The translations under genes were made by a program, and so were the position numbers. From positions 1-24,000 of the forward strand of contig CAZYNT010000010.1 of NCBI GenBank assembly GCA_964648205.1: a stretch of 24,000 bases of DNA, given 5' to 3'. The stretch is from an uncultured Gammaproteobacteria bacterium. Its GTDB lineage: Bacteria; Patescibacteriota; Patescibacteriia; Patescibacteriales; UBA12465. Positions 2,701-17,385 of the stretch are shown here, one piece after another. Below the pieces are notes generated by a model. That model was given only the letters and a program-made list of their open reading frames with translations, ran no database searches and was not told the DNA's origin. Position 1 is the first letter of the stretch. Each line of letters starts with the position of its first letter.

Positions 2701-3741
2701 CTAATTGATTTCAATATCTATAAAAACCGCTTCGGGCACCCGGGTGCGTATTCTTTTTTCAATTTCGTCTATTTTCTTGCCGACTAAACGCGGCACTCTA
2801 TCTATATAGTCCACCGAAAACTTCATAAAATTCTCATAACTCTCTTTAACCTCTTCATATTCATTTTCCAGGAAATGGTGCTGGTTCAGTTCTTTCATGA
2901 GGGCCGAGGCATTAAATTCCACGTCGCACTTGATCAAATATTTATCAACGTCCAGAATAGCCGATTTGAAATCAAGTACCTTCTCAATGGTCGGATCACT
3001 GTTAAATATCTCCAAAACGATTTTTTCGATGTCGGCCGGGATGGCCTTGGTAATCAAGTAGTTCCGATTTTTGGCAATAAGGACAATCGCCATGGCGCCC
3101 AAAAGCAACCCTATCAAGATGGAAGCACCGGCGTCCCAATAATATTGGCCGGTAATATAGGTCAGGACAATACTTATAAAGGCGATGATAATTCCCAAAA
3201 CCGCCAAACTATCTTCATATATTACGGCCAGGGTCGCCGGGTCGGCATTAGCTAAAGCCGAGCTTAACTTGGCTTTGGGCTGGCGGAGCAGATGGCCGCG
3301 CAATTCCCGAACCGCTATTAGAAGAGTGGCCGATTCGATTATAAAGGCGATGGCCAGGATAACAAGAGCCCAAGGATTGAAATGGATTGCTGTCTGATGC
3401 CAGAAGGAGGCAACGCCGTGATAGACGGTTGCGCCGCAGCCGACAAAAAAAATGCCGCAGGCGGAAATGAGCGCCCAGATGAAGCGTTCCTTGCCGTAGC
3501 CGTAATTGAATTCTTTGTCCGGTTTCTTAACCGATTGGCGGACGCCGATAACGAGCAGAAATTGATTGGCCGTGTCCGCCAGACTATGGATAGCTTCGGA
3601 AAACATGGCGCCGGAACCGGTAAAAGCAAAACCGACAAATTTGGCGGCGCAAACCACGGCATTGCCGCAAAAAGCGGCCAAAACTGGCCAGGAACCGGCC
3701 GGGCTGGCAGCATGGCTATGGATTGTTCTAGAAGTAGGCAT
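2701..3741 (-). CDS. Cation diffusion facilitator (CDF) family divalent-metal efflux transporter
   Basis: 346-aa ORF with about six hydrophobic helices. It has the CDF-type metal-site motif FSEAIHSLADTANQ in an early TM helix, plus a C-terminal cytoplasmic domain. The GC-rich TM-encoding 5' half explains the overlapping spurious ORFs in other frames. Confidence 0.85.
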   Translation of the reverse strand: MPTSRTIHSHAASPAGSWPVLAAFCGNAVVCAAKFVGFAFTGSGAMFSEAIHSLADTANQFLLVIGVRQSVKKPDKEFNYGYGKERFIWALISACGIFFVGCGATVYHGVASFWHQTAIHFNPWALVILAIAFIIESATLLIAVRELRGHLLRQPKAKLSSALANADPATLAVIYEDSLAVLGIIIAFISIVLTYITGQYYWDAGASILIGLLLGAMAIVLIAKNRNYLITKAIPADIEKIVLEIFNSDPTIEKVLDFKSAILDVDKYLIKCDVEFNASALMKELNQHHFLENEYEEVKESYENFMKFSVDYIDRVPRLVGKKIDEIEKRIRTRVPEAVFIDIEIN

Positions 3742-3796
3742 ATTATAATAGAATATTATATTAATAGGATATTATATAAAAAGAGGGATGTAAATA

Positions 3797-3930
3797 AAAC
3801 CCCGCCAATAATCTGTAGAGCGCGGCCGGACGTTTTCGGCGTCCGGCGGACGAGAAGCCAATCCTTATTTAGGAGAGAGTTTTTAAATAAGAACCTTACT
3901 TCTCCGCTCTACAGGTTACTAGCGGGGTTT
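3797..3930 (-). ncRNA. Structured three-way-junction RNA element of unknown class (candidate cis-leader/attenuator of the CDF gene, or a small RNA)
   Basis: Nested helices read directly: 3797-3805/3922-3930 (9 bp), 3813-3822/3905-3914 (10 bp), side hairpin 3825-3832/3840-3847 (8 bp), 3852-3857/3899-3904 (6 bp), and apical 3864-3871/3884-3891 (8 bp, 12-nt loop). Internal loop 3858-3863/3892-3898 pairs only in minus-sense RNA (U.G, A-U, G.U, U.G). The minus-sense closing helix is followed by UUUUAUUU. The element lies ~55 nt upstream of the CDF ATG. Strand assignment is tentative. Confidence 0.45.
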
Positions 3931-3980
3931 GGTTTTTGGGCCGAGGCCCGACTTGGTTTGTTTTTTTTCTTTTCTGAAGA

Positions 3981-4040
3981 CACTATTTTATAAAATAATG
4001 TTTTCGGGAAAGAAGCGAACCGGTTGAACGACCGGTTCGC
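3981..4040 (-). terminator. Junction module A: GC hairpin with CGUUCA loop plus AU-rich hairpin, downstream of the 217-aa gene
   Basis: Minus sense reads GCGAACCGGU-CGUUCA-ACCGGUUCGC (4015-4040, 10 bp), then UUCUUUCCCGAAA. Next comes hairpin ACAUUAUUUUA/UAAAAUAGUGU (about 3981-4003), whose U.G pair would be a C.A mismatch on the plus strand. The module starts 22 nt after the stop at 4062. Confidence 0.6.
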
Positions 4041-4061
4041 CAGAAACAATTAAGTTTGCTT

Positions 4062-4715
4062 CTAAATAAAGGAAAACTGCAATCTTCTTCTATATTCTGC
4101 TACGTCTTCCCTTCTAAGCAAAAATTCTCCTAACCAATAGGTTTGGTCGTATTTAGTATTCTTACTACGACCGCCTTCCTGCCAGGCAGAATTTTTTATT
4201 CTTTCTTCAGCTTCTTCCGGAGGGATACTGTTTAGATATTCCTTTACCCTCTCTATGCTGAGTACCTTACCCCAGAAATGCACCTCGTTAGTTCTGGTCG
4301 CCAAGTCTATTATCTCTTCTGGCGACCCGGAAATTAAAGTTTTTTGGAAATCCTTTCTGCTCTGCATAATTTCTGCAAACTCATAACCCATTCCAAAAAA
4401 CCCTTTTCCGTTCCATAGATCAAAGGCCTCTTTAAAAGAAACGTCCTCCCTCGTTATATATACTTCAACGAGTTTCGATGCTATAGTGTGGCAATCACTT
4501 GTACAATAGTCAGCATCTTCCATTTTTATGAAATGGTTAATGATACTCCAGGCTTTTGTCTTATCAACGTCCAGCCTTTTCACTACCACGCTCCACACCT
4601 CTTCTTTATTTTTTTTCTTAGCGTAGTCGATGAGTTCTTCGTAATTCATCTTTTCCAGTTCTTCCTCAGAGGTACCAAATGTTCTGAGTAAAAAATCATA
4701 ATTATCTTTAGCCAT
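4062..4715 (-). CDS. Hypothetical protein (217 aa from the preferred start)
   Basis: Track ORF 4062..4745 starts at a GTG. The in-frame ATG at 4715 (MAKDNYDF) is preceded by GGGGAGAAAA, a good Shine-Dalgarno. I recognise no family motif. Confidence 0.6.
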   Translation of the reverse strand: MAKDNYDFLLRTFGTSEEELEKMNYEELIDYAKKKNKEEVWSVVVKRLDVDKTKAWSIINHFIKMEDADYCTSDCHTIASKLVEVYITREDVSFKEAFDLWNGKGFFGMGYEFAEIMQSRKDFQKTLISGSPEEIIDLATRTNEVHFWGKVLSIERVKEYLNSIPPEEAEERIKNSAWQEGGRSKNTKYDQTYWLGEFLLRREDVAEYRRRLQFSFI

Positions 4716-4771
4716 TTTTCTCCCCGCGCTTACTTTACTCGTCACGGGTTTATTTTTTTAGTTAATACTGA

Positions 4772-4847
4772 TTTTATTCCCATCTCCACTTCTCGCTCTT
4801 GGGGATTAGGGCGCCCTGTTTTATGTCGAGGGAGGACAAAAGAAGAT
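4772..4847. repeat. Conserved intergenic element, copy 1 (partner at 9157-9221)
   Basis: Plus strand ttttattcccatctccacttctcgctcttggggattagggcgccctgttttatgtcgagggaggac aligns by eye with tttttttatccatctgaatttcgctcttaggatttatagcgctcaatttcatgtcgagagaagat at roughly three quarters identity. The central palindrome is GGGCGCCC (4809-4816). Confidence 0.6.
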
Positions 4848-4848
4848 T

Positions 4849-5112
4849 TCATTTTTTTAACGCCCGACGCAGAATTTCTGCAAAATCGCTAGAAGCGCCC
4901 GAATTTTCTTCTGGGCTCTCCTCGTATTTGCTTTCTTTCTGGTTTCCAAAATGATAGTCATAAACATAATTCTTGACATCATTTGGATCGGCGCCGCAAA
5001 AGAAATCCTGACCGCCAATGGAAATCAGGTGGTCATAAACCCGGCTCCGGCCGCAAACACCGACGATGTGTTCATCAATATCGTCAGTATTAAGAGCGGC
5101 TACGCTCTTCCG
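4849..5112 (-). other. 87-codon open frame with no ATG/GTG/TTG start, in the +1 frame relative to the helicase 3' end
   Basis: Hand translation of the minus strand from 5112 gives RKSVAALNTDDIDEHIVGVCGRSRVYDHLISIGGQDFFCGADPNDVKNYVYDYHFGNQKESKYEESPEENSGASSDFAEILRRALKK, ending at a TGA stop (4849-4851). The composition looks protein-like and there is no canonical start, so it is absent from the ORF track. Confidence 0.3.
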
Positions 5113-8100
5113 CTAAGCCCGCTAATTTTTCCATCAGGTCCTTAGCCTCGGAGATAGACTCTTCAGCTCCTGGAAAGTCGGCCTGGCCGGCAGCGCTAGA
5201 GGCAGAGGAAATCAGATCACGGATCTGATTAACTTCGTCAATTACTAAATCTGCAGGAATCTCATTGAGATAATTCTGAAATGATTCCTGAAATTTAGCG
5301 ACGAGTTCAATCGTCTCCGTGTTTTTTTGTTCCAGCTCAGATTTAACCAAAGCAATTTTTTCCTCAACTGCGGCAATGGTGTCGGAGATATTCTCAACAC
5401 TCAAATTAGCAATTGCCGAATCAACTGCTTCTGAAATCTGACGCTGGGCCAATTTGCCCAAAGCGGTCCAGGACCAGTAGCGATACCAGGGATGAACCTG
5501 TCCCAAGCTAGAGCCTGAATAATAGCCAATAAACGATCGAACGGCTTTTAGTGTTTCCACCTCGGCTTCTTCCTGGTTCTTTTTTAGAACCAAGCGCACT
5601 TGATCGCCGGACACGCAGAGAGATGGATAAGCACAAAGGCTTGAACCGTCATCCTTAACGGCGACTTCGATCGGCTTCAGCTGAACTAAAAGATTTTTTA
5701 AATTTTCCTGACCTTCCAGCCAAGAAGAATTAAAGCTTCTTTCCGCCTGCGACCAAGCTTCAGTTAAGCGCTTATTTTCAAAATAAGCTTTAACTTCCAC
5801 CCAGTCACAAAAGCTGTTATTCCAATCAACGCTGAGACTGACTGAACGACCGCCGGGTAGGGTAACTGCCCCCTCGGACTCTTTGGCCATCTGCTCAGTT
5901 ATTTGAATGCTGGCCTGATTTTCTGAATAGGAAACGTGAATTTCTTCGCCGTTAACTATTATTGAATCAGGATTCTCGGCCAAAATCTTAGCTTCCTTAG
6001 CGGCATCAATAACCGGCAGAAGCAATGATTCTGTTTGAGCGTCAGCGAGACGAGCCGTGCCGTTAAGCTTCTCACGGCAGAATTCTTGCCATTCCCAATT
6101 TGAATTCGGGCACAAGAAAATCTTTTCGCCAGAGCGCTGATTAAGCTCGCGCATCCGCTTCGCCGTGGCGACGTTCTGAGCGACAAAATCATATCCGGCC
6201 AGGCTATAGCCGTAATACAATTTGTTCGCCAACCATTGGGCGAAAACTTCAGCGGCCTGAGAATGATCAGGCGTTTCCACGACTTCTTCTTTAACGAGTA
6301 TGCCGTTAAAATAAGTCTGCCGCGTTGAAACGCATGCGTCTTTCTCTGAGTTGTATTGAGGATTTACCCCCTCAACAACCTTAGAAAGCTGCGGTGCGAC
6401 TTCGACGAGCATGGTCGGATTAACGCTCGTGGCCATCGTAACCAGGTGCAGAATCATCCGGCCACGGCGAGTCTGAATCTCAATATCAAACGGAAGTCCG
6501 ATAAGCCAGTCCCCACCGAATTGAAGTTCTTCTCTCGCCTGCTTGCGGATCGTGTCGTCACCGTTTTTCCATTCGCCCCAGCTAACCGACTTATAAAGAT
6601 GGTCGATCATGCCGGAACAGATGGCGCGCATAATATCATCCCGCTTCCCGGAACTCTGCAAAGAATGAACTTTGCCTTTCAGGGAATCGGTTAATAGACG
6701 GCGGCGATCATTAGCCTGATGATAGGCCTTAACAAAAAGGCCATTCAGACGACGGTCTTCGTTCGACAGATTTTTAGCGCCGCGAAAAATTGCCAGTTGA
6801 GCGAGAACATTACTGTCTTTCTCTTCCGGACAAAACTTCCGACGGGCTAAATCATTGCCATCTTCTTCGCTCCCGTCCGGCATTTTCACCTTCCGAGAAG
6901 TGATACCGCCCTGCTCGAGAATTGCAGCGACACTAATAATGTCACCAACTACTCCGAGCTTATCGGCCTCTACGATCATGCGACCATATTGGACCGAAAT
7001 AGGAAGGCGGGCAACCTGGCGGCCGGTGGAAGTTACTTCGCCGTTTTCATCCATACAGCCGAGAGCTCTTAAAGCCCTTTTAGCCTCATGGATCTGATCG
7101 AGAGGCGGCTGATGAAAAAAGCTAAGTTCTTCCGCGTCAATTTTGGCTTCAGCCAAACGGAGAACCGTCTGGTCTAAACGGACGCGAAGAATTTCAGCCA
7201 GCGGAAAATCTAAACGACCTTCGCCCTGGGGGCAATGATCAATGTAGATTCCTTCGCGGCAACGGCCAGCCCGGCCTTTACGCTGTGCGCGGTCAGCCAT
7301 GGAAATAGCGCGCAGGTATAAACCCTCAACGCCGTCCATCAGTTCAATCCGCTTTTCTGTGCCGTCATCAACCACAGCGTCGATGTCCTCGATAGTAATC
7401 GAAGTCTGCGCAACGTTCGTAGCGATGACGCACTTGGCGCGATCGTAAGTTCTGAAAACCTTATCCTGGTCTTCGGACTCCAACTCGCCATGGAGCGGCA
7501 ATATTTCCGCCTGCAGGCCTTCGACTTTTTTCAAAGCGGCAGTCAGTTCCAAAATTTCCGCTTTGCCCGGTTTAAAAACCAGAACATTGCGGCCTTCCTG
7601 AAGAAGGGTCGTAACATCCTGGAGAACGTTCAAGCTCTGCATCCTTTCGGAATGATCAGCCTGACGTTCCTCGACCGGATAACAGCGGCCTGGAACAGAA
7701 ATCACCGGCGCCGAACTAAAAAACTCAGATAATTTTTCCGCCTCTAACGTGGCGGACATTATCACGAGCTTGAAGGCGGCACCATTCTCAATCTGGCGTT
7801 TTGACCAAGCGGCCAAAACTTCCATATTAAGATTCCACTCGTGGACCTCGTCCAGCACCAGGATATGATGCCGTCCGACGCCCATCAATTCTCGCACCAG
7901 GGCTAAGCCATCGGTGCAGAAAAGACAACGGGTGCTGGCGGAATCCTGGCGCTCGTAAGCGGTCCGGAAACCAATTTCCTGCCCGAGCTCCCCGTTCCGT
8001 TCCTGAGCGACGCGTTTGGCCACTGAACGAGCGGCTAAACGGCGCGGCTGAGTCACGACCAAGGAATATCCTTCGTCGAGTAAGAACTGCGGCACGCGGG

Positions 8101-8209
8101 TTGATTTCCCGGCGCCAGTTTCAGCGGTGATTATCGTAACCGAGCTACTTCTCACCGAATTAATAATCTGGACCCGGAAATCATCAACGGGCAATTTCTG
8201 ATTCTTCAT
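5090..8209 (-). CDS. DEAH-box (HrpA/HrpB/DHX-like, superfamily 2) helicase with a long uncharacterised C-terminal region
   Basis: Motif I GAGKST (aa 32-37), Ia TQPRRLAARS, Ib TDG, II DEVH (aa 120-123), III SAT, and VI QRKGRAGR. An HA2-like segment follows (LRLAEAKIDAEELSFFHQPP...LPISVQYGRMIV). About 400 further residues have no motif I recognise, and the extreme C-terminus is probably coiled-coil. Confidence 0.85.
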   Translation of the reverse strand: MKNQKLPVDDFRVQIINSVRSSSVTIITAETGAGKSTRVPQFLLDEGYSLVVTQPRRLAARSVAKRVAQERNGELGQEIGFRTAYERQDSASTRCLFCTDGLALVRELMGVGRHHILVLDEVHEWNLNMEVLAAWSKRQIENGAAFKLVIMSATLEAEKLSEFFSSAPVISVPGRCYPVEERQADHSERMQSLNVLQDVTTLLQEGRNVLVFKPGKAEILELTAALKKVEGLQAEILPLHGELESEDQDKVFRTYDRAKCVIATNVAQTSITIEDIDAVVDDGTEKRIELMDGVEGLYLRAISMADRAQRKGRAGRCREGIYIDHCPQGEGRLDFPLAEILRVRLDQTVLRLAEAKIDAEELSFFHQPPLDQIHEAKRALRALGCMDENGEVTSTGRQVARLPISVQYGRMIVEADKLGVVGDIISVAAILEQGGITSRKVKMPDGSEEDGNDLARRKFCPEEKDSNVLAQLAIFRGAKNLSNEDRRLNGLFVKAYHQANDRRRLLTDSLKGKVHSLQSSGKRDDIMRAICSGMIDHLYKSVSWGEWKNGDDTIRKQAREELQFGGDWLIGLPFDIEIQTRRGRMILHLVTMATSVNPTMLVEVAPQLSKVVEGVNPQYNSEKDACVSTRQTYFNGILVKEEVVETPDHSQAAEVFAQWLANKLYYGYSLAGYDFVAQNVATAKRMRELNQRSGEKIFLCPNSNWEWQEFCREKLNGTARLADAQTESLLLPVIDAAKEAKILAENPDSIIVNGEEIHVSYSENQASIQITEQMAKESEGAVTLPGGRSVSLSVDWNNSFCDWVEVKAYFENKRLTEAWSQAERSFNSSWLEGQENLKNLLVQLKPIEVAVKDDGSSLCAYPSLCVSGDQVRLVLKKNQEEAEVETLKAVRSFIGYYSGSSLGQVHPWYRYWSWTALGKLAQRQISEAVDSAIANLSVENISDTIAAVEEKIALVKSELEQKNTETIELVAKFQESFQNYLNEIPADLVIDEVNQIRDLISSASSAAGQADFPGAEESISEAKDLMEKLAGLAEERSRS

Positions 8210-8216
8210 GGTTTAC

Positions 8217-8280
8217 AATTTTTAGATTGTTATCTAAAAAACAAAAGTTGATTTGTCTCTTAAATAACAATCTAAAAATT
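8217..8280 (-). promoter_or_regulatory. Perfect 17-bp inverted repeat immediately 5' of the helicase start codon
   Basis: aatttttagattgttat (8217-8233) is the exact reverse complement of ataacaatctaaaaatt (8264-8280). The spacer is 30 nt and contains an inner ACAAA/TTTGT pair. The repeat ends 7 nt before the ATG at 8209, and no Shine-Dalgarno is visible. Confidence 0.55.
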
Positions 8281-8321
8281 AACCTTTGAAAAATTTCTAC
8301 TCGTCCAAGAATTTCTTCTCT

Positions 8322-8385
8322 GAGACCACCATTTTAAAATGATGATCTCGGAAAGAAAGACGAGCATGAACGGCTCGTCTTCTTT
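8322..8385 (-). terminator. Junction module C: GC hairpin with CGUUCAU loop plus second hairpin, downstream of the 194-aa gene
   Basis: Minus sense reads AGACGAGC-CGUUCAU-GCUCGUCU (8358-8380, flanked by a further A/U extension), then UUCUUUCC. Next comes hairpin GAGAUCAUCAUUUU/AAAAUGGUGGUCUC (8322-8349). Its two U.G pairs are C.A mismatches on the plus strand. Confidence 0.6.
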
Positions 8386-8404
8386 GAACATTTTTCGCCG
8401 TGTT

Positions 8405-8989
8405 TTATTCGGGGCTAGCTTCAAAATCACCCTCGTACTCGTAGTGTTCGAGTACTTGAAATGATTTTTCTACGCCGATGACATCAGCGATGCCATTAAT
8501 GTGATTAAAAATTATATCCTCTTTGTCGGGAGCGAGGATAATCTCCCCCTTAAGAGTCCGAACTTTCAGCACGGTTCGCTCCTTTTTATAGTACCCGTGA
8601 TTGCAGGTACCATATTCCTCAAATTTCCAGCACCCCATTCCGTCACAGCGGGAATGGTATTCGGAAATTTTGGAAACAAATCTCTCCCTGAGAAGAGACA
8701 CCATCCGATCGCCTCTTCCTTCGGCGACTTTTTCCAACCGCTCCAGGTTGATAATTTCCCTGTCGCGAGAAGAAATTATTTCTTTAAAAGAGGTAACTTC
8801 TTTGAACATGACCTGGAAAATCCAGGTCCAAAAAACTGAGAAGGTGGTCCATAATGCCGCCATTCCCAATTCCGACCAGGACGGGTGCTCGGTTGGTGCA
8901 CACCTCATCCAAAGGAATACTGATATCCACCACATGCACATGATTGCGATGATGGTGTTGGTTGTTCTTTTTGTTTTCATTTTTTTCAT
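8405..8989 (-). CDS. Hypothetical membrane protein with a Cys/His cluster
   Basis: 194-aa ORF with two N-terminal hydrophobic helices (IIAIMCMWWISVFLWM and LGMAALWTTFSVFWTWIFQVMF). The soluble C-terminal domain contains CDGMGCWKFEEYGTCNH. No Shine-Dalgarno is obvious. Confidence 0.55.
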   Translation of the reverse strand: MKKMKTKRTTNTIIAIMCMWWISVFLWMRCAPTEHPSWSELGMAALWTTFSVFWTWIFQVMFKEVTSFKEIISSRDREIINLERLEKVAEGRGDRMVSLLRERFVSKISEYHSRCDGMGCWKFEEYGTCNHGYYKKERTVLKVRTLKGEIILAPDKEDIIFNHINGIADVIGVEKSFQVLEHYEYEGDFEASPE

Positions 8990-8998
8990 TTTTTTCAG

Positions 8999-9051
8999 TT
9001 TAAAGGTTTATCCAATACACCAAATTCTGATGCGCTAAATAAACCTTTAAA
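8999..9051 (-). promoter_or_regulatory. Perfect 13-bp inverted repeat immediately 5' of the 194-aa gene start
   Basis: tttaaaggtttat (8999-9011) is the exact reverse complement of ataaacctttaaa (9039-9051). The spacer is 27 nt, and the repeat ends 9 nt before the ATG at 8989. Confidence 0.5.
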
Positions 9052-9076
9052 TCGTAAAAATGAAAACTTCTTCTCT

Positions 9077-9140
9077 AAAAACATAATTTAAAATTATGTT
9101 TTTGGAAAAGAAGCGAACTGGATGAACAACCAGTTCGCTT
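9077..9140 (-). terminator. Junction module B: GC hairpin with UGUUCAU loop plus perfect AU palindrome, downstream of the 350-aa gene
   Basis: Minus sense reads AAGCGAACUGG-UUGUUCAU-CCAGUUCGCUU (9111-9140), then CUUUUCC. Next is a 13-bp perfect palindrome AAAAACAUAAUUU/AAAUUAUGUUUUU (9077-9103), followed by AGAGAAGAAG, which can pair back to the CUUUUC tract. The stem differs from module A by a compensated C-G to U-A change. Confidence 0.6.
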
Positions 9141-9156
9141 TTTAAACTTTAATTAA

Positions 9157-9221
9157 TTTTTTTATCCATCTGAATTTCGCTCTTAGGATTTATAGCGCTC
9201 AATTTCATGTCGAGAGAAGAT
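9157..9221. repeat. Conserved intergenic element, copy 2 (partner at 4772-4847)
   Basis: See copy 1. The central palindrome here is AGCGCT (9194-9199), where copy 1 has GGGCGCCC. The element begins ~15 nt after the stop of the 350-aa gene. Confidence 0.6.
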
Positions 9222-9236
9222 AGTGTCCATAATTCC

Positions 9237-10289
9237 CTACCTGGTGAATCCAGGCACAGAAACTATCTGGCCGTTCTCGCGGATGACCGCGGGGTGGCCA
9301 GTTGCCGGCGCGACCACGTCGGGACGGGCGCCGCCCAAGGCAGTCAGCAACATTCCGCTGACCACCAAAAACTTACCCGGTTGCGGCGCTGGCAGCCCGG
9401 TGACTTCACCGAACTTCTGTTCGGTGATGCCGTCGCCGTCGAAATCGGCAAACGACGCGGCCACGCGGGGAGCAGGGGCGGCGGGAATAAGGACCCGCCC
9501 ATCGTTAAGCCGCAGCATGTGCGGCGTCAGATTGACAAATTTTTCACCCAATGCGAACCGGGTGAAAAATTCTGCCTCAGTCTGGTTAGGGTAACCGCCC
9601 CAGTAGGCGGAGCCACCCGACTTGCCGAGACCGGAACCGCCGTTCCAGCCTTCGAACTTTTCTTTAAGGACAGCGCACAATTGTCCGTCCCCATAAAAAT
9701 TCACCTCCCCGTCGCCGGAGAGGACCAGGAGCTGGTCGTACTGACCGAATAAACGGTCAGTGACGGTTGCTGACTTGCTGTGCGAAAGGCGCACGATCGT
9801 CAGGCGACCGACGATTTCGCGACTGGCAATCGCGATTTCAGCGGCCGCTTCCTGCTCGGACGTAATACCCTGAGCGGAACGGTCGGCCAAGCGAACCTCA
9901 GCTACTTCCTCGGGCGTGACGTCCATTGCCATCATCGCCGGAATGTAGCCGCTGTCGTTGGCGGCGATGAGCTGCTGATAGCGGTTCGGCTCCAGGCCGA
10001 GCAGGTTCAACACCTGCAGGATGGAGGCCGGTTCCGCGGCTCGGTCGCCATGATGGTCGACCAGAATGACTCCTTCCGGCAGGTCGATGTCCTTGGTCAG
10101 CTCGACCAGAACCGGGACCTTGCCTGCGCTTGCCGCTTCAGCAATTTCAGTGGCATAGGCGGAGGCCGCGGCGCCCCAGCCCAAGTTATTATTTCTGACT
10201 TCGGCGCCGGTCACTGCCAGCACCTGAGCGATTTCGGTCATCTCGGCATCGCGTCCGCCGAGGAAAAATACAAAATTTTTCTTATTCAT
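9237..10289 (-). CDS. Hypothetical protein, strongly GC-enriched (350 aa from the preferred start)
   Basis: Track ORF 9237..10358. I prefer the ATG at 10289 (MNKKNFVFFLGGRDAEM), but the start is ambiguous. Hand counts of 60-nt lines give ~62-65% GC against ~32-42% in the right-hand genes. Three long spurious ORFs overlap it in other frames, as expected for stop-poor GC-rich DNA. Motifs seen are LVDHHG and DFDGDG. Confidence 0.6.
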   Translation of the reverse strand: MNKKNFVFFLGGRDAEMTEIAQVLAVTGAEVRNNNLGWGAAASAYATEIAEAASAGKVPVLVELTKDIDLPEGVILVDHHGDRAAEPASILQVLNLLGLEPNRYQQLIAANDSGYIPAMMAMDVTPEEVAEVRLADRSAQGITSEQEAAAEIAIASREIVGRLTIVRLSHSKSATVTDRLFGQYDQLLVLSGDGEVNFYGDGQLCAVLKEKFEGWNGGSGLGKSGGSAYWGGYPNQTEAEFFTRFALGEKFVNLTPHMLRLNDGRVLIPAAPAPRVAASFADFDGDGITEQKFGEVTGLPAPQPGKFLVVSGMLLTALGGARPDVVAPATGHPAVIRENGQIVSVPGFTR

Positions 10290-10418
10290 TTTTATTGCCG
10301 CTCTTAACGGCTTTTGTTTCCTCCGAAGTGACATTACCCGGATTATCCTGAGGCTCATCTTTTAAAATGAAACACAAAATAATCCGAACAATAGGCTTAA
10401 GTTAAAAATGAAAACAAA

Positions 10419-10480
10419 TTCGCTTTCGTCTTGCCGAAATAATCGGAAGACTCATCAGCCCGTCTGAGACGAGGAGCAAA
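10419..10480 (-). ncRNA. Hammerhead ribozyme, type III topology (candidate)
   Basis: Minus sense reads UUUGCU C CUCGUC-UCA-GACGGG CUGAUGA GUCUUCCGA-UUAUU-UCGGCAAGAC GAA AGCGAA. The CUGAUGA core is present, G10.1/C11.1 close stem II, and GAA, A15.1:U16.1 and C17 are in place. All three stems form; I and II are closed and III is open. The G.U pairs are consistent only with the minus strand. Confidence 0.75.
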
Positions 10481-10481
10481 A

Positions 10482-10506
10482 GGGGCAAGATTGAACGGCT
10501 TGCCCC
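10482..10506 (-). terminator. Junction module D hairpin (CGUUCAA-type loop) abutting the hammerhead; terminator function doubtful
   Basis: Minus sense reads GGGGCAAG-CCGUUCAAU-CUUGCCCC. The following UUUU is part of hammerhead stem III. The hairpin lies 140 nt downstream of the 78-aa gene stop. Confidence 0.4.
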
Positions 10507-10646
10507 CCGAACTTCCCGATGGCTAACGCCAAATCCTTTTCGAGAGAAAGGAACCCACTATTTTTTCTCCAACCGTAAGGGAATTTTATATTGGCTGGGT
10601 TTCATTCCCGGTTAATGCAGATTAGTGACTGCTCCCGGTTTTCAGT

Positions 10647-10883
10647 TCAAAGCGAGAAATCTTCGTAGAAGATTTCTACCTTTTTACCTTCTCTGATAAA
10701 GAGGGTGCCGCCATAAGAACTCCAACCATTCCCTTGGCGCACCTCTTCGTGACCAATGTCGATTTTAACAACATTGGTCACAACCTTACCCTTAAGAGTA
10801 AGGTTGAAGGTGATTGAACTAATCCAGCTCTCGATCGCCAGGCTAGAGGCGTCGAGGCCGAAGTTTTTTGCTAAACTAGCCAT
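10647..10883 (-). CDS. Small hypothetical protein (78 aa)
   Basis: ORF with ATG at 10883 preceded by GAGG about 9 nt upstream. The sequence looks beta-rich and I recognise no family. Confidence 0.5.
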   Translation of the reverse strand: MASLAKNFGLDASSLAIESWISSITFNLTLKGKVVTNVVKIDIGHEEVRQGNGWSSYGGTLFIREGKKVEIFYEDFSL

Positions 10884-10888
10884 AACTT

Positions 10889-10935
10889 AAGCCTCAAGGA
10901 TGCTGCGTTCATAAATCGCTTCATCTTTAAGGCCT
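10889..10935 (-). promoter_or_regulatory. 5'-UTR hairpin sequestering the Shine-Dalgarno of the 78-aa gene
   Basis: Minus-sense AGGCCUUAA (10927-10935) pairs with UUGAGGCUU (10889-10897) over 9 bp, including two G.U pairs that are mismatches on the plus strand. The 29-nt spacer has inner GAUG/CAUC and GCG/CGC pairs. The 3' arm contains the GAGG Shine-Dalgarno and ends 5 nt before the AUG. Confidence 0.5.
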
Positions 10936-10989
10936 ATATATATCTAATTTAACTAATTTTTTAAACTAATTAATTTCGATTATTAAATT

Positions 10990-11633
10990 TTTAAAGTCCT
11001 TTCCCCTCCCGATACTCAGGTCCTGATCTATTTCGAGGAAATTTCCGGGCCCCAAACTTGTTCAAGGTTTGAGACTTCGGCCGATCTCCTCGTAAGAGAC
11101 GGTCGCGATAGCCGCTGTTCACTGATCCTTTTCTCCTTGCGGAAATACGGACACAAATTACTAGGATCGCCTGCGCCTTCGGATACGGTTTGCGACGTAC
11201 CCTCCGGATCGGCTCGACTAAACGCTGATTCTAACTGTTTAAGTTAGAAGCAAACGATAGGCGTTTTGCTAATCTCGGGACATGGACTCTCTCCCGGCTC
11301 ATTTTTTGAACCAATGGCTGTCCATTTCAATCTCCTAAAATCGGCAGTAAACGCTATTATTTTTATAATGTACTAAGAAATAATTTAACCGTTATTTCTT
11401 CGGCTGAGCTTGCGCTCCTTATCCGCAGGGCGGATAGTGATGAAGAGGAGCTACCGACAGTCTTGATAGGAATCTGTTAAAGCGGCATGGGTGATCACTT
11501 TAAACTTCATATTCGATTTTCCTGATAACTGTCATTTTTTATAGAACCGCAAATAAGTTTATTATGACTTTTTCGCAGTATCTAACTCTCTCCACTTCAT
11601 TACTATTCGTCTTGCTTTAGCGCCATTGGCACC
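10990..11633 (-). ncRNA. Structured non-coding region of unknown class (one or more RNAs; boundaries and strand tentative)
   Basis: No ORF of 60 aa or more. There are many GC-rich local helices in an AT-rich context. Examples are 11420-11436 (UAUCCGC/GCGGAUA) nested in 11414-11419/11446-11451, 11375-11400 (9-bp stem), 11232-11248 (TTCTAACT/AGTTAGAA) nested in AAACGC/GCGTTT, and 11276-11296 (CGGGA/UCCCG). Confidence 0.3.
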
Positions 11634-11658
11634 AAAAAAACTCTTCCGAGGAAAGAGT
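11634..11658 (-). terminator. Rho-independent terminator (minus strand)
   Basis: Minus sense reads ACUCUUU-CCUCG-GAAGAGU, a 7-bp stem including one U.G pair, followed directly by UUUUUUU (plus-strand a-run at 11634-11640). Confidence 0.6.
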
Positions 11659-12027
11659 TGTTATTATGATTAGGCGCGATAACAATTAAATGTAAATATT
11701 TGGCCGCTTAATCTAATGGCTCTCTCCTTCCATTAATTAATTTATTTTATTGTAATGTTCTGTCTCGCTAGGCCGAATTTTATCGGCGTCTTATCGGAGA
11801 CTGGGTCTTCCTCATCTTTCTTGATGAGAAGTGGCCGCTCGCCGCTAAGGCGTTTCCTGTCTATACCCTTCGAATTGGACCGACACCATGCTCTCTCCGT
11901 CATAATGTCCGCCACTCTAATTCAGCTAAGTATAGAATCAAGAAGTGTTTGACTTTCTATTGAATGTTTTATTGAATGAACTTTTGGATATTTCCGAATT
12001 TCTCTTTGGCCTTCTCTCACTTTCGAT
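11634..12027 (-). ncRNA. Candidate ~390-nt ncRNA bounded by a promoter and a terminator, with GGAGAGAG-loop hairpins
   Basis: The region lies between the minus-strand promoter (12034-12062) and the terminator (11634-11658), with no credible ORF. Hairpin 11884-11907 is CAUUAUG-ACGGAGAGAG-CAUGGUG, with two U.G pairs valid only on the minus strand. Hairpin 11714-11735 is UAAUGG-AAGGAGAGAG-CCAUUA. Other helices include CUUCUCAUC/GAUGAGGAAG and GCCGA/UCGGC, and AGUGGC/GCCACU encloses a domain. Confidence 0.4.
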
Positions 12028-12033
12028 ACTGAC

Positions 12034-12062
12034 AGTTTAGCACCCTTTGACAACTTTGTCAA
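12034..12062 (-). promoter_or_regulatory. Candidate sigma70-type promoter facing the non-coding region, embedded in the palindrome TTGACAA-CT-TTGTCAA
   Basis: On the minus strand: -35 TTGACA (12057-12062), a 17-nt spacer, then -10 TAAACT (12034-12039). The palindrome at 12047-12062 also yields a plus-strand TTGACA. Confidence 0.4.
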
Positions 12063-12158
12063 TACTAATTAATACATTTCTCAGTAATTGTTAGTAAAAT
12101 ACAAGACAGCACTGCATAAAATATGCGTATTTATTTATTAATTTTGTCATTATTAAAA

Positions 12159-12187
12159 TTGACACTTATCTTTTGTTTTGCTATAAT
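12159..12187 (+). promoter_or_regulatory. Consensus sigma70-type promoter for the TrmB-like gene
   Basis: TTGACA (12159-12164), an exactly 17-nt spacer, then TATAAT (12182-12187), about 88 nt upstream of the ATG at 12275. Confidence 0.6.
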
Positions 12188-12274
12188 AGAGATATAAATA
12201 AGGAATCTGCTTAACGACTAATAAAATAAAAACTTATTTTTGTAAAGTTATCCACAACCCATATTTACAAATAT

Positions 12275-13126
12275 ATGAACGAAAAAATACTTTTAGGCCT
12301 TGGCCTAACTAAAGTCCAGGCCGAAATTCTAACCTGCCTTTTGCAAAACGGCCCCCAAAAAGCCAGCAACATCGCCAACATAACAAAAAGACCTCGAGGC
12401 GTTGCCTATAAGGGTCTTGAAGAATTGATTGATTTAGACTTGGCTATAAAAAAAGAGAGCAAGCTTGGCGTGGCTTTATTTACAGCCGAACACCCTTCTA
12501 ACCTGGAAAAAGTTCTTGAGCGGCGCGAAAAGGAACTGGATAAAACCAAGAAAGAATTCGCCGCTTCCCTGCCGGATCTGGTTTCCGCCTATAACCTGGT
12601 CAGCAATAAGCCGGGAGTCAGATTCTACGAAGGCGAGGAGGGGATTAAAAAAGTTTTGGAAGATACCTTGCTCAGTAACCCCGACAAAAAGCTTTATACT
12701 TTTTCCGATGTGGCTAGCTATGCGACTTATCTTAGCGATTGGAACACAAGCTACTATGCTCCACAAAGAAAAAAGCTCGGCGTTTTTGAGAAAGTTATTA
12801 TCCCCGATAACGCTCGAGCCCTGGAATATATGAAAGATTATAAGTCTAATGAAGTAACGGATATTTTATTTATTGACCATAAAGCCTACCCTTTCGCGAC
12901 TGAAATAAATATTTATAACAACAAAGTTTCTTTCGTGACCTTCGCTCCCGATTTTATGGTCGGCGTAATCGTTGAAAATAAAGAAATATATAAAACCTTG
13001 CTTTCTATTTTTAATTTCATGTGGCAATTCTGCAAACAAAATTTACAAAATTCCCAACCCGCTTGGCTAAAAAGACAAACCACCCCGTCATTACCGGCTG
13101 CCGGCTCAAGCGACCAGTCAGTTTAA
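12275..13126 (+). CDS. TrmB-family winged-helix transcriptional regulator
   Basis: The N-terminus LGLTKVQAEILTCLLQNGPQKASNIANITKRPRGVAYKGLEELIDLDLA matches the TrmB-type HTH pattern. A ~200-aa C-terminal domain follows. The stop codon overlaps the stop of the convergent giant gene. Confidence 0.65.
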   Translation: MNEKILLGLGLTKVQAEILTCLLQNGPQKASNIANITKRPRGVAYKGLEELIDLDLAIKKESKLGVALFTAEHPSNLEKVLERREKELDKTKKEFAASLPDLVSAYNLVSNKPGVRFYEGEEGIKKVLEDTLLSNPDKKLYTFSDVASYATYLSDWNTSYYAPQRKKLGVFEKVIIPDNARALEYMKDYKSNEVTDILFIDHKAYPFATEINIYNNKVSFVTFAPDFMVGVIVENKEIYKTLLSIFNFMWQFCKQNLQNSQPAWLKRQTTPSLPAAGSSDQSV

Positions 13127-16100
13127 TTAAGTTCCGTCGGCTTAACGATATATCTCTGGATGAAACGTAAAATCTCTAGCAAACTGGTTGCTTCTTTAGC
13201 CTCGCTTAAAAGCTCTTCTCGACTCTTATCTATTTTTTCAAAATATCCGGCGGGCGCTTTTTCTAGGTTAGCGAAATAATGTTTTAAAATCGGACGAACG
13301 ACGCTCTCGGCGTATTTTAATTGCTTCTTATTATCCAGCGTTAAAATCTTGCCGCCGATCAAGCCTTCGCCGGCAGCCACTACCTGGTCGCTATTAACCA
13401 AAAGATCAGAGTCATTCTTATAAAAATAGGTGCTATAAGGCTCTTTAAATTTAACAACGCTTTCTTTTTCTTCAAAATCGCCGCGGAAGCCAAAACTGGC
13501 CGAACCGACTTCCGGACAAACAAAATTCAATGATAAAGAGTCTTTCTTAATTGTCTTATCCAGGCCGGCTTTAGAGTCGGTTTTTATTTTTCCTAAATGG
13601 TCTTGCAAACGCTGGAAATAAGCAAGAGACGGAGAACCCTTAGCTAATTTTGATTTTTTTTCATTAATGGAATCACGAATAAGTTTGCAAATGGTATTCA
13701 ATAGTACTTTAGCTTCCGGACTTTCGGGATTATCTAAAACCTCAAATCCTTTTTCTTTGCCAACCTGTTCAAAATTACGGATCACCGACCCTAAAATATC
13801 ATAACGAGCTTCATTAAGATGGCCGATCTTTGTTCCGTTAGTAGACAAAATCCAGGCCAATTCTTCAAGCGCATAGCCGATATATTCTTCCTTTTCCGCC
13901 CCCGAGACAGATTCTTGGACCATAGCGAAGAAGGCTTCTTTAAAAACCGGACTCTCTTTCAAATTTTTAACAATGCCGTTATAACGTTCATAATCTTTTT
14001 GGTTGCCGCTTAAAAATTCTTGGTATCTTTGAACTTTAATATTATCTAAACCAAAAGTATCAATAATTTTTTCATATTGCCTAGCCTCGCAATCGCCAAT
14101 TTCTCCTGCTTTCTGGCGAGCCGCGCTTTCGCTTTTGCCATAACGAACCTGATAATTATTAACCTGGATTTCATCGCAAATAACTAAATTAACTTTCCGG
14201 CCCTGATTATTAAGCCAAAACAAATAGCCGTATATATCAATCGGCTTGGCCGCTTTTTTTTCATTTTCAAAAACCGCTTCCCAGGATGGCAAATCCTTGG
14301 AAATGCCAACCGGAAAATATAAAGGAGCTTGGTCGGGAATATTTTCCGGCTTAACCTCGTTATTTTCAAAATTACTGAAACCATTTGGCAATTTAGTTTC
14401 TTCCTGCCCGTAAATCAGCTGATCCATTTTATTCTCCAAAGCGATTTGCAGGGGGAGGGCTTGCTGTAATTTTTTAATAGCCTCTTCATAAAGAGCCTGC
14501 TCCTCGGAAATCGGCCCGCTCAAAACATCGTGGTATTTTTTTATTTTTTCCGACCAGGCAGATGCTTCCGTTTCTCCGTCGGCCGACCCTTCTTCTTTTT
14601 TTAATTCCGCCAAAACCTGCCGGATGGCTTCCGGGCGGCAGCTTTCGACTTCCGCCATCGTTCGATAATATTCAATCATTTCTTTTATCCGCTCCGCGCT
14701 AAACTTTTTATGCTGTTCAAAGTCCCGGCGAATCAGCGTCTGAGTCGCTTCATCAAAATCCTTGATCATTTGGGGAAAATTTTGATCATCGGCAATTTCG
14801 GCGGCGTCGTCATAAGGCGAAGCAAGCCCTTCCAAAACATCAATGCCGAGCTGACGATAAACTTCGTTAAGTTTTTTGGCCATTTCTCCAAATTCCGCCA
14901 AATTCTCTTGGCTTCTAAGCAACTCCTCATTAAAGCTTGAGACCAATTTATCAATATCAACTGCGCTGGTCGCCGGATCGTTAACTTTAATATTAGCTTC
15001 GGTTAACAAATTACTGGCTCGGGAAAGACTGGCTCGTACGAACCTTTTCGTATCAATATTTTTATCGAAAAATATTTCCTGGTACATCCGTGAAACATCC
15101 TGAGTCTCGCTAGAATCATTAATTTCTGCCACCTTGGAAAGCAGCTGATTAATTTGTTCGGGCTTTAATTTTTTTCCTAAATTAATAATAGCTTCGCCGA
15201 TGCCATAGTCAATATTCAGGCATAAGAATGATTTTATCCGGTTGATTTTATCTTCTTCTGTTTTCGCCTCATTTATAAAGGCGGCGATTTCTCTTACTCT
15301 CTCTTCATTATTTTCACTCAAAAACCTTAATAAATATATCTGGTAGCGGAAAGGGATTTCTTTCAGATCAATGCCTACTTGGTCGTTGATATAGGCTTCC
15401 ATATCAGGGCGATGCATGTGCTTTAAAAATAGAGAAATTTCTTCAGTCTCTTTATCATTTATATAATCGGCCATTTGGCTGTCTTTAGACAGCGAATTAT
15501 AGTCGTAAAAATTAATTTCCAGCGCGTCATTTTTCAAATTTCTACCCAGTGTTTGTAATTTATTGGCTAGCCCCTTGGCAACTTCTGCAAAATTGGCATT
15601 AATCAACGAGCGCTCCCGCTCATAATTTTCAAGCAATTTCGCGTGCCGGCTGCCGGCGCTTTCATATAGCTCCGCCGTTAGCTTCTCGGCGGCCACAAAA
15701 TTATTGTGATGTTCTTTTTTCAAACCCTCATAACCTAACCATAATTGGCCACAGACGTCTTTTCCGTTAAACAACTTTTCCGGCTGGTTATTTTTTTTAT
15801 CAAAAGACTTCAGAAGATTAAGGCCGCTGACAAAATCAACTACCGCCGAATAAGCTTTTTCCGAATTACCTTGTCTATAGCCTGAAACAAATTTTTCCCA
15901 TATCGACTGAAGGTTGGCATTATGTTCAGCTTCTAAAATTTTTGAGGCGGCCGTGTTGAAGTAATCTAAAAAATTATCAGTCGCCTGCAAATTTTGATTC
16001 TTGGCCTTAGCATTTATGTTTGCTCTTTTTATCCGCAAATCGTCTTTCAGTTGGTCAATCTTGTCCTGATTACTAAAAAATTCCAGCCAACTTTCCCGGG

Positions 16101-17313: not shown

Positions 17314-17385
17314 AACATTAAATTCTCTCCCCAAAATTAATTAATCCCTTATTTTAAATACTTTTTTATCTAAATTTTATCTAAA

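Follow-up and report, generated by a model that had tools for sequence, protein, structure and literature searches.

In polycistronic RNAs of prophages, multiple hammerhead ribozymes flank genes, including in one case the anti-restriction gene ardA; their cleavage was shown in vitro, and they are proposed to divide a long RNA into mRNAs the length of a gene (Perreault et al. 2011, PMC3088659). These clusters are the closest precedent for the locus described here, the minus-strand segment at positions 3742-12062 of a 24-kb window. By "window" we mean the whole stretch of DNA analyzed (contig CAZYNT010000010.1, positions 1-24,000, from an uncultured bacterium of the Patescibacteriota lineage). 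As in the prophages, several hammerheads on the same strand lie between the genes of one predicted transcript, and the cargo is inconstant. The locus differs in being a fixed chromosomal locus of Patescibacteria, without integrase or phage genes, in the coupling of its ribozymes to a hairpin with a GUUCA loop, and in the position of the array behind a structured leader RNA of ~1 kb. The window itself keeps one ribozyme, in a variant form.

One protein of the segment has precedents in type III CRISPR systems. Crn4, the renamed Unk01, is a broad-spectrum ring nuclease with the essential residues T13, H15 and R112. It also trims polyA RNA, and its known fusions are with Csm6-2 and TIR-SAVED, with no mention of DHH or NrN (PMC12830947). 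NrN, a DHH phosphodiesterase, belongs to the type III-B CorA system of Bacteroides fragilis and degrades SAM-AMP (PMC10600005). In the window, both enzyme types are found in a single protein.

Relatives' DNA was collected in three ways: from contigs encoding close homologues of the window proteins, by a one-genome-per-species scan with an alignment of the TrmB-like protein encoded next to the segment (16 loci), and by a metagenome scan with a pattern for the leader RNA (29 loci, ~19 of them true). Neighborhoods were compared by tBLASTn of the window proteins against the relatives' loci. On this comparative evidence, the segment is one version of an operon with a fixed chromosomal place in a Patescibacteria clade, and its architecture is a new cellular variant of the arrangement known from prophages. 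We favor, at slightly better than even, a composite reading in which the operon gives one transcript, the leader controls read-through, hammerheads cut the RNA, the encoded enzymes clear messengers and a helicase acts on RNA.

Promoter, leader RNA and ribozyme junctions

All features lie on the minus strand unless stated otherwise. A sigma-70-like promoter was found at 12034-12062 (TTGACA, 17 nucleotides, TAAACT, with a TG extension; 10/12 matches), and its hexamers are conserved in every aligned relative. We infer a transcription start at ~12027. The structured RNA of more than 1 kb that had been predicted from the sequence was located directly behind the promoter, at 11028-12030, as a leader of ~1 kb with several domains and a structure supported by covariation. 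The leader DNA is 74-85% identical to that of relatives whose TrmB and helicase proteins are 54-60% identical. In the relatives the leader measures 0.65-1.1 kb including its 3' domain, which starts 380-820 nucleotides from the promoter. Against Rfam 15 the leader gave no match at gathering score, and chance-level hairpin matches only at E<=5-10. All Rfam scans together (the whole window at gathering score, E-value scans of 3500-12400 and 10390-10520, and the relatives' loci) returned tRNAs, DUF805b motifs and one sub-threshold Hammerhead_3 in the related locus L016, and none of these on the leader.

Domain 1 of the leader (11790-11925) is optional and occurs in about half of the relatives; RNAalifold gave it 29 pairs, 15 of them compensatory, from nine sequences. 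The near-universal hairpin AAUGG-AAGGAGAGAG-CCAUU (11715-11734) was found in 15 of the 24 loci examined. Its GGAAGGAGAGAGCC is invariant in 4/4 distant sequences, with a compensatory change from AUGG/CCAU to ACGG/CCGU. An intrinsic-terminator-like hairpin follows within the leader at 11632-11659 (ACUCUU/AAGAGU at 11659-11639, then U7). Homologous hairpins, one each, are present in 7/19 leaders (the window and 6/18 others), with a 5' arm of the CUCUCU or CUCUU type. The motif GGAGAGAG recurs in the leader, displayed in hairpin loops, and because the 5' arm of the terminator-like hairpin (CUCUUUCC or CUCUCUCC) is complementary to the GGAGAGAG/GGAAGGAG motif, this hairpin is a candidate attenuator. 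The complementarity suggests terminator/antiterminator switching in the leader.

The 3' domain (11028-11296) has ~270 nucleotides and 13 helices. From 13 genomes (alignment A7), RNAalifold recovered 52 pairs with 32 compensatory double changes. In this alignment 94.8% of cells were paired vs 79.5% in shuffles, 0/500 shuffles reached the observed covariation, and sliding the 3' partners by 1-3 columns reduced the paired fraction to 36-53%. The covariance model of the domain (R2) found one copy per locus in 31 loci, the window scoring 270 bits. In a larger alignment (A11, 32 sequences) 41/52 pairs had double changes, a figure that leans towards the R2 model because the alignment was fitted to it. 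The loop of helix 13, CUUGAACAA, is identical in 26/27 clade members. The invariant loop of helix 7, GCAAAC, is complementary to an invariant single-stranded GUUUGC ~60 nucleotides upstream in the same domain, a candidate pseudoknot of a kind that RNAalifold cannot show. In size class, number of covarying helices, invariant loops and narrow phylogenetic range, the leader resembles OLE, GOLLD, ROOL and raiA. It differs from them in matching no Rfam family and in sitting as an operon leader with an attenuator-like terminator. By its predicted structure, the leader appears to be an RNA family without Rfam counterpart, not previously described.

A type III hammerhead of variant form, called already in the original prediction, is present at 10414-10484, with the core CUGAUGA...GAAA, three helices and a UC cleavage dinucleotide. 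Read by eye at 10458-10424, the core consists of CUGAUGAG, stem II and CGAAA, with U16.1 pairing to the last A, and contains all catalytic positions of the class (C3-U4-G5-A6-N7-G8-A9, G12-A13-A14 and the A15.1-U16.1 pair). Stem III has 6 base pairs, stem I has 6 base pairs and a UCA triloop, and stem II (5+4 base pairs) is long and bulged. Stems I and II are closed and stem III is open; the NUH site is C-U-C, and cleavage is predicted after C10474. Folded at minimum free energy, 10412-10512 forms exactly a hairpin and then the three-way junction. The clade covariance model R1, from 22 relatives' copies, scores the window copy at 31.5 bits (E 2e-6; its sole match in 24 kb, filters off) and the relatives' copies at 69-84 bits. 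On its predicted core and helices, the window hammerhead joins a known class as a new, variant form.

Hammerheads in the relatives were found by pattern search and then by covariance model. Each related locus has 1-4 copies, all on the operon strand and between open reading frames (ORFs); further matches in relatives numbered 29 and 16. The 22 copies align gap-free, with 93.9% paired and double changes at 12/18 pairs; 0/500 shuffles reached the observed covariation, and slid versions were <=50% paired. The best relative copy, in L016 (Rfam Hammerhead_3, 42.2 bits, E 2e-7; gathering score 48.5), lies ~130 nucleotides upstream of the NrN gene, a placement that matches that of the window copy.

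The ribozymes are part of a larger junction module, with the order 3'-untranslated region (UTR) stem, GC-rich GUUCA(A) hairpin, type III hammerhead, and 5'-UTR with a purine-rich ribosome-binding tract. In the relatives, the hairpin (7-11 base pairs, GUUCA(A) loop) lies just upstream of the hammerhead, and its 3' strand enters stem III. A strict test for this hairpin was passed by 32/43 hammerhead copies, most of the others being AUUCAA-looped. The hairpin stems vary in sequence with the pairing kept. At the first junction of the window the hairpin GGGGCAAG-CCGUUCAAU-CUUGCCCC (10481-10507), with a GUUCAA loop, abuts the hammerhead, and only there is a hammerhead retained. The other three junctions consist of the hairpin and then UUCUUUYCC, a pyrimidine remnant corresponding to the 5' strand of stem III. 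These are GCGAACUGG-UUGUUCAU-CCAGUUCGC, then UUCUUUUCC (9104-9143, the hairpin itself at 9108-9143), where the hammerhead was lost and the 60 nucleotides upstream share 92% identity with the pre-hammerhead module of L016; GACGAGC-CGUUCAU-GCUCGUC, then UUUCUUUCC (8359-8379); and GCGAACCGG-UCGUUCAA-CCGGUUCGC, then UUCUUUCCC (4015-4040). The repeated junction modules and duplicated elements reported for the segment correspond to these conserved GUUCA-loop hairpins, the duplication measuring 50 nucleotides (3991-4040 vs 9089-9138, 86% identical). We had considered the GC-rich junction hairpins as plain terminators, and rejected this on comparison with the relatives, which shows the conserved module. 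Upstream of the NrN-Crn4 gene, a 5'-UTR hairpin (GGAUUAUUUU...AGGAUAAUCC; 10337-10388) is kept, with compensatory changes, upstream of genes in L003, L008, L010, L016 and L044.

UUGAAC in the leader loop and GUUCAA in the junction loops are exactly complementary, which makes contact between the loops possible; neither motif varies within the clade. Single copies of the hammerhead with its GUUCAA hairpin were also found in three predicted viral contigs of IMG/VR, of ~60 kb each (L053 4241-4302, L054 9038-9099 and L055 2806-2867), scoring 69-71 bits. The leader 3' domain is absent from all three, and PHROGs annotation of them returned nothing informative, the ORFs next to the hammerheads being unannotated.

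Rfam DUF805b motifs above gathering score (~50 bits) were detected on the operon strand in the cassette regions of L015 (4329-4363, minus strand) and L016 (3219-3253, minus strand). The latter lies right after the helicase stop codon and before a hammerhead. The window has no DUF805b motif.

Predicted signal-nucleotide degraders and other cargo

The original prediction recognized nothing but the helicase core among the proteins of the segment and listed the 350-amino-acid protein (9237-10289) as an orphan. We identified it as a fusion of an NrN-type DHH phosphodiesterase (residues ~1-245) and a Crn4 ring nuclease (residues ~250-350). The ORF spans 373 codons (9237-10358); the 350-amino-acid form, from the ATG at 10289, is identical to the database protein P0001. 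No known defense signature had been seen in the segment, and PADLOC found three in this ORF: C3a116 (2.7e-67) and DHH_CorA (1.3e-50) at residues 28-254 of the 373-amino-acid form, and Unk_01 (1.1e-9) at residues 273-368.

Profile and structure comparisons agree with these matches. A profile of 57 homologues matched NrN crystal structures (PDB 9lq9) with an E value of 4e-53. The AlphaFold2 model had a predicted local distance difference test (pLDDT) score >90 for residues 1-250. In Foldseek it matched NrN bound to SAM-AMP (9lqa; E 5e-24) with a template-modeling (TM) score of 0.83, vs <=0.49 for generic nanoRNases, pGpG phosphodiesterases and RecJ. The residues D14, E16, D78-H79-H80 and N111-D112 are invariant in the 57 homologues, in keeping with a DHH fold. 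The profile of the C-terminal domain matched Crn4b (PDB 9r7b, E 2.7e-11) and also Crn4a. Its invariant N-x-T-P-H motif and VxR(D/E) arginine correspond to T13, H15 and R112, placing the domain in the Crn4 family. The model of residues 251-350, the part that would adopt the novel dimeric fold of Crn4, is poor (pLDDT ~45), because few alignment rows cover this domain. Stand-alone Crn4 proteins in the relatives have ~110 amino acids, and one of them matches PADLOC Unk_01 at 6.7e-25.

With the B. fragilis NrN (PMC10600005; PDB 9lq9 to 9lqc) the window protein shares the fold, the DHH motif and the acidic residues. It differs in being ~30% identical, fused to Crn4 and without CorA or Cas10 nearby; its substrate is predicted only, and stand-alone forms occur widely in the candidate phyla radiation. 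With Crn4 (PMC12830947; PDB 9r7b, 9sma, 9qs9) it shares the T-P-H and R residues, and the ~110-amino-acid stand-alone form of the relatives is like Crn4b. While the known Crn4 fusions are with effectors (Csm6-2, TIR-SAVED), the partner here is a second signal-degrading enzyme, outside a CRISPR locus. Other ring-nuclease fusions (Csx1-Crn2, "fuse to defuse") likewise package ring nuclease activity by fusion. Because the Crn4 paper omits DHH and NrN, and we found no literature mentioning both, the NrN-Crn4 fusion appears undescribed, and by its predicted domains it appears to be a new combination.

In the relatives, the cargo varies. We found NrN and/or Crn4 in 17 loci, a Mvol_0529-family protein (PADLOC 2e-24) in 13, an unknown protein of 143 amino acids in seven, the helicase in 6-7, and AAA-Csx3 (C3a67, 8e-54) with a 164-amino-acid partner in four. 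Three loci each had bpMoxR plus VWA, GT8 plus PIG-L, and a radical SAM enzyme with weak viperin similarity; a DUF1874/Csx16-like protein (PF08960, 4e-11) was present in two loci, and other unknowns in many. NrN, Crn4, AAA-Csx3 and DUF1874/Csx16 thus represent four unrelated families of signal-nucleotide degraders at one locus. Mvol_0529 is another type III-associated family, and the commonest first gene after the leader in the relatives. The four degraders switch signaling off rather than defend by themselves. In the DNA examined, we saw neither Cas10 nor a cyclase nor a CARF/SAVED effector. Neither were Cas10, CorA or a CRISPR array found in the 24-kb window or the related loci examined, so the type III/CorA association of NrN is missing here. 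The PADLOC matches are accessory or degrading components only, and do not add up to a complete system with sensor and effector genes. Of the defense-type function suggested originally, the part that stands is the presence of type III CRISPR accessory families, in the 350-amino-acid protein and in the relatives' cassettes; a sensor, cyclase or effector was not seen.

Ring nucleases of the AcrIII-1/DUF1874 type occur in viruses and plasmids away from Cas10, acting as anti-CRISPRs. The locus resembles them in the DUF1874/Csx16-like cassettes of the relatives and in one NrN homologue that carries PF08960. It differs in its host, a cellular chromosome and not a virus, and in its Crn4 domain, which is unrelated. 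Our first guess for this domain had been DUF1874/Crn2, and was rejected when hhalign against the DUF1874-like cassettes gave a probability of 0.7%.

Genes for a bpMoxR AAA+ ATPase and a VWA (CoxE-like) protein recur beside helicase/NrN or AAA-Csx3 (L006 1815-10840, L008 2231-5028, L010, L018). This arrangement is seen in the clade and in a distant candidate phyla radiation genome; the window is without the pair. This recurrence hints at a wider functional linkage. The Mvol_0529-family proteins of L031 and L008 weakly resemble the cytoplasmic C-terminal domain of the CDF cation-efflux protein of the window (2854-3156; 27% over 103 amino acids, E 1e-4).

The helicase gene (5090-8209, 1039 amino acids as called) encodes a DEAH/RHA-type protein, as predicted, with matches to Pfam DEAD, Helicase_C, HA2_N and, weakly, DUF3418 (HrpA C-terminal region), and a visible DEVH motif. 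Its best PDB matches were a putative pre-mRNA splicing factor (6i3o), Prp16 and HrpA, at ~E 1e-69 to 1e-70, with DHX8 and Prp22 lower. It shares the RecA1/RecA2 core and the HA2 winged helix with HrpA/HrpB and the Prp/DHX helicases. In contrast to HrpA/HrpB, it has a lineage-specific C-terminal half and tail, and its scores with the NCBIfam HrpA/HrpB models (~285 bits) are far below the equivalog cut-offs (722 and 546), i.e., below the level of an HrpA orthologue. Among its 4471 homologues, the core is 56-62% identical to many, and the named best matches are from Patescibacteria or "HrpA-like". The homologues often share contigs with NrN-like genes, also outside the clade. In E. coli, HrpA is needed for the processing of a fimbrial operon mRNA.

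A start-less frame of 87 codons, previously listed on its own, turned out to be the C-terminal tail of the helicase (4861-5109). It shares 63% identity with the end of the L016 helicase (E 3e-29), and its frame differs from that of the ORF ending at 5090. The helicase frame breaks near 5090-5140, and the conserved tail DEHIVGxCGRxRVYDHL...FFCGADPNDVK.YV.DYHFGN continues in another frame. Either an error in the assembly or a genuine frameshift, perhaps a programmed one, could account for the break. Directly upstream of the helicase start codon there is an AT-rich hairpin (8217-8280, minus strand; 29-nucleotide arms, 90% complementary, 20% GC), which may be a translational control element. Its microRNA-like Rfam score of 36 bits is not meaningful here.

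With the 350-amino-acid protein identified, three of the four predicted orphans are left, and none of them has a family in Pfam, PADLOC, NCBIfam or PHROGs. The 227/217-amino-acid ORF (p217; 4062-4745, the 217-amino-acid form 4062-4715) had itself as its sole match among 5.8 billion proteins. The 194-amino-acid ORF (p194; 8405-8989) encodes a predicted membrane protein and is a near-orphan, with one 47%-identical relative by exhaustive HMMER and 183-amino-acid homologues in the metagenome loci L025 and L040. The 78-amino-acid ORF (p78; 10647-10883) is the first cassette after the leader. It had no homologue among the relatives' cargo (phmmer), and is a putative coding ORF and an orphan.

Genomic setting of the locus

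The same neighborhood was found by tBLASTn in many Patescibacteria (Falkowbacteria-like) genomes, one of them labeled Candidatus Falkowbacteria. The shared order is ftsK, 6-9 kb, TrmB (on the opposite strand), a large protein, (CDF), kinase, GH57 and glycogen synthase. The interval between ftsK and TrmB holds an NrN-like gene and a helicase, in the same order as in the window, in L003/L014, L016 and L005, and other genes in L011, L015, L017 and L018. The original prediction had proposed to look for relatives in which this interval is empty; it was occupied in all those examined, behind the same leader. The leader adjoins TrmB in nearly all of the 16 genome loci, and the flanking genes (large protein, glycogen genes, ftsK) recur wherever the relatives' contigs reach that far. 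Promoter, leader, junction framework and flanks are kept across genomes whose proteins are 37-60% identical. As judged from these alignments, the framework is vertically conserved and variation is confined to the cargo between junctions.

In the window, the minus-strand ORFs of the segment stand as first listed. On the downstream side they are followed by a CDF cation-efflux gene (2701-3741) and ftsK (106-2685). On the upstream side, a 1.4-kb gap with no credible ORF (10884-12274) separates p78 from the TrmB-family gene (12275-13126, plus strand), which is divergent from the operon. This gene had been taken for the tRNA methyltransferase trmB, and is a sugar-type transcription regulator by its Pfam match (TrmB, PF01978). 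It is followed by the gene for a 1403-amino-acid protein (13123-17334, minus strand) and, from 17447 onward, by genes for an APH-type kinase, GH57, glycogen synthase, RuvC and YebC, mostly on the minus strand. No tRNA or tmRNA genes, and no CRISPR-like or other tandem array, were found in the window. The patchy base composition was confirmed: the NrN-Crn4 gene has a GC content of 0.60 and a third-position GC content (GC3) of 0.70, vs 0.39-0.50 elsewhere.

Between the last cassette and the CDF gene lies a long imperfect hairpin (3792-3935; 31-nucleotide arms, 84% complementary), followed by a U-run. Homologous sequence was found just upstream of CDF or ftsK in at least seven relatives (L011, L012, L014, L015, L016, L038 and L044). 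Placed where the cassette region stops on its downstream side, this hairpin may mark where the operon ends. A weak c-di-GMP-I match nearby (3615-3699, plus strand) lies inside the CDF coding region and looks like chance.

The 1403-amino-acid protein (also L002 3028-5604 and L005 4174-7311) adjoins the TrmB-like regulator in nearly all relatives. Residues 1036-1149 weakly match tRNA-dependent cyclodipeptide synthases (TIGR04539, E 1.3e-4). Its L002 homologue has a weak PF16715 match. Beyond these, no family was recognized for the 1403-amino-acid protein. Patescibacteria-type loci were also found in records titled "uncultured Gammaproteobacteria" (L012, L013, L015 and L020; CAZFUP01, CAZCQW01, CAYUWA01 and CAYMCJ01). 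A TrmB homologue, the leader RNA and hammerheads are present in them, and their taxonomic labels look wrong.

Proposed working of the operon and its alternatives

The label of an RNA-centered module, given to the segment originally, fits what was found: one promoter, a covarying structured leader, a junction ribozyme family and an RNA helicase. In the composite reading, the whole block would be transcribed as one RNA from the single sigma-70-like promoter, and the leader would be a cis-regulator of read-through, the 5' arm of the window terminator pairing alternatively with the GGAGAGAG loops. Cleavage by the hammerheads would divide the long transcript into mRNAs of one gene each. At the 3' ends so formed, the junction hairpin and a 2',3'-cyclic phosphate would act as a cap; the 5' ends would start with a folded ribozyme and a 5'-OH. 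The UUGAAC loop of the leader may kiss the GUUCAA loops of the junctions. The theme of the cargo would be the removal of adenylate-based second messengers: the Crn4 half would open cyclic oligoadenylates, the NrN half would hydrolyze SAM-AMP or short linear products, and the DEAH helicase would remodel RNA. The role of the operon would most likely be to reset or blunt cyclic-nucleotide immune signaling inside the cell.

Several points weigh against this. Cleavage, transcript and enzyme activities at the locus are predictions from sequence. No Cas10, CD-NTase, CorA or CARF effector is encoded within the 24 kb. Messenger removal is not the exclusive theme of the cargo, since a glycosyltransferase, a PIG-L deacetylase, a radical SAM enzyme and numerous unknowns are also found in the relatives. 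The Rfam hammerhead models miss the window copy even at E<=10 (gathering score 48.5 bits, RF00008). With its short stem I and triloop, this copy lacks a contact between loops that natural hammerheads of high speed typically have. Ribozymes are missing from three of the four window junctions, hence processing cannot be essential here. In L019, L020, L021 and L023 both the UUGAAC and the GUUCAA motifs change, though not cleanly. Because these divergent loci give no clean covariation, we regard the kissing contact as hypothetical.

The main rival is a housekeeping role in RNA turnover or nucleotide salvage. The NrN-like DHH protein would be the nanoRNase of this lineage, Crn4- and Csx3-type enzymes would be metal-independent RNases acting on oligoadenylate tails, and the helicase would unwind their substrates. 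Such a set would be useful to bacteria unable to make nucleotides, and the CRISPR link would be merely ancestral. An NrN-like protein of 245-265 amino acids, 55-73% identical, has named matches from Jorgensen-, Davies-, Kaiser-, Moranii- and Peribacteria, and it often lies on one contig with an HrpA-like helicase, even outside the clade. Because stand-alone NrN-like proteins and the helicase are so widespread in the candidate phyla radiation, a housekeeping RNA role fits this part of the data equally well. The polyA trimming by Crn4 (PMC12830947) and the failure to find Cas10 nearby also point that way. This rival is opposed by the convergence of four unrelated signal-nucleotide degraders and Mvol_0529 on one locus, and by the DHH domain, which is closest to the SAM-AMP enzyme (TM 0.83) and far from generic nanoRNases, pGpG phosphodiesterases and RecJ (<=0.49). 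We consider it unlikely, but a serious possibility. A horizontally acquired mobile or defense island between housekeeping genes, the hypothesis put forward originally, is very unlikely. It would explain the cargo varying among genomes at the same locus, the three orphan ORFs, the PADLOC matches and the atypical GC3 (0.70) of the NrN-Crn4 gene; in addition, clustered hammerheads are typically carried by prophages, and the hammerhead-plus-GUUCAA module was also found in the three IMG/VR contigs. The GC argument for transfer is weak, since NrN genes are GC-richer than their own surroundings in most of these genomes, and the identity of NrN-Crn4 to its L002 homologue (80%) is in line with that of its neighbors (TrmB 87%, large protein 70%). 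Moreover, integrase and transposase domains were not found among the window proteins, in agreement with the original prediction, and there are no flanking direct or other boundary repeats in the window, the sole repeats being the internal junction modules. No viral contig was found to carry the leader, none of the relatives has the locus empty, and the enzymes belong to families that degrade signals and are neither sensors nor effectors. The marks of a mobile element or genomic island (recombinase, att sites or boundary repeats, presence/absence polymorphism) are missing. Promoter, leader, junctions and flanks are conserved despite 37-60% protein identity, and with such a framework around variable cargo, the finding named beforehand as refuting mobility, a block conserved at this locus across the clade, was largely obtained.

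The leader allows two further readings. Rather than a cis-regulator, it could be a stable RNA that is freed from the operon transcript and has its own function; a scaffold, a sponge for a protein binding the GGAGAGAG loops, a ligand sensor or a ribozyme would be possibilities. Its length (0.65-1.1 kb), multi-helix build, invariant loops and candidate pseudoknot exceed the needs of a simple attenuator. The internal terminator in 7/19 leaders would free a 5' fragment, and in L010 a degenerate hammerhead lies directly 3' of the 3' domain. However, the leader is always directly upstream of the cassettes and in the same orientation, no second promoter is evident between it and the first ORF, and it is itself known only at the sequence level. 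We regard such a trans-acting RNA as distinctly unlikely. More far-reaching, and in its entirety quite unlikely, is that the leader represents a new class of large RNAs controlling the ribozyme processing of its own operon. The UUGAAC loop would dock on the GUUCAA hairpins abutting every hammerhead, the GGAGAGAG loops would compete with CUCUCC-type strands (the internal terminator and the junction hairpin/stem III region), and a cellular signal, possibly oligoadenylate, would decide on read-through and cleavage of a battery of messenger-destroying enzymes. If so, it would be a cellular, chromosomally fixed counter-signaling system in host-dependent ultra-small bacteria.

If the composite reading is true, the candidate phyla radiation, for which to our knowledge almost no non-coding RNAs have been characterized, would contribute a family of large structured RNAs that covaries strongly and has no counterpart in Rfam. 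Hammerhead-punctuated operons, described mainly in prophages, would also be a stable cellular arrangement. Their ribozyme would be coupled to a conserved hairpin module, and the window would have been caught while losing ribozymes. In the NrN-Crn4 protein, a single polypeptide would unite the two chemistries known to destroy the messengers of type III CRISPR, SAM-AMP and cyclic oligoadenylates. This would raise the question of why host-dependent genomes of ~0.8 Mb keep a dedicated, heavily regulated ring-nuclease locus.

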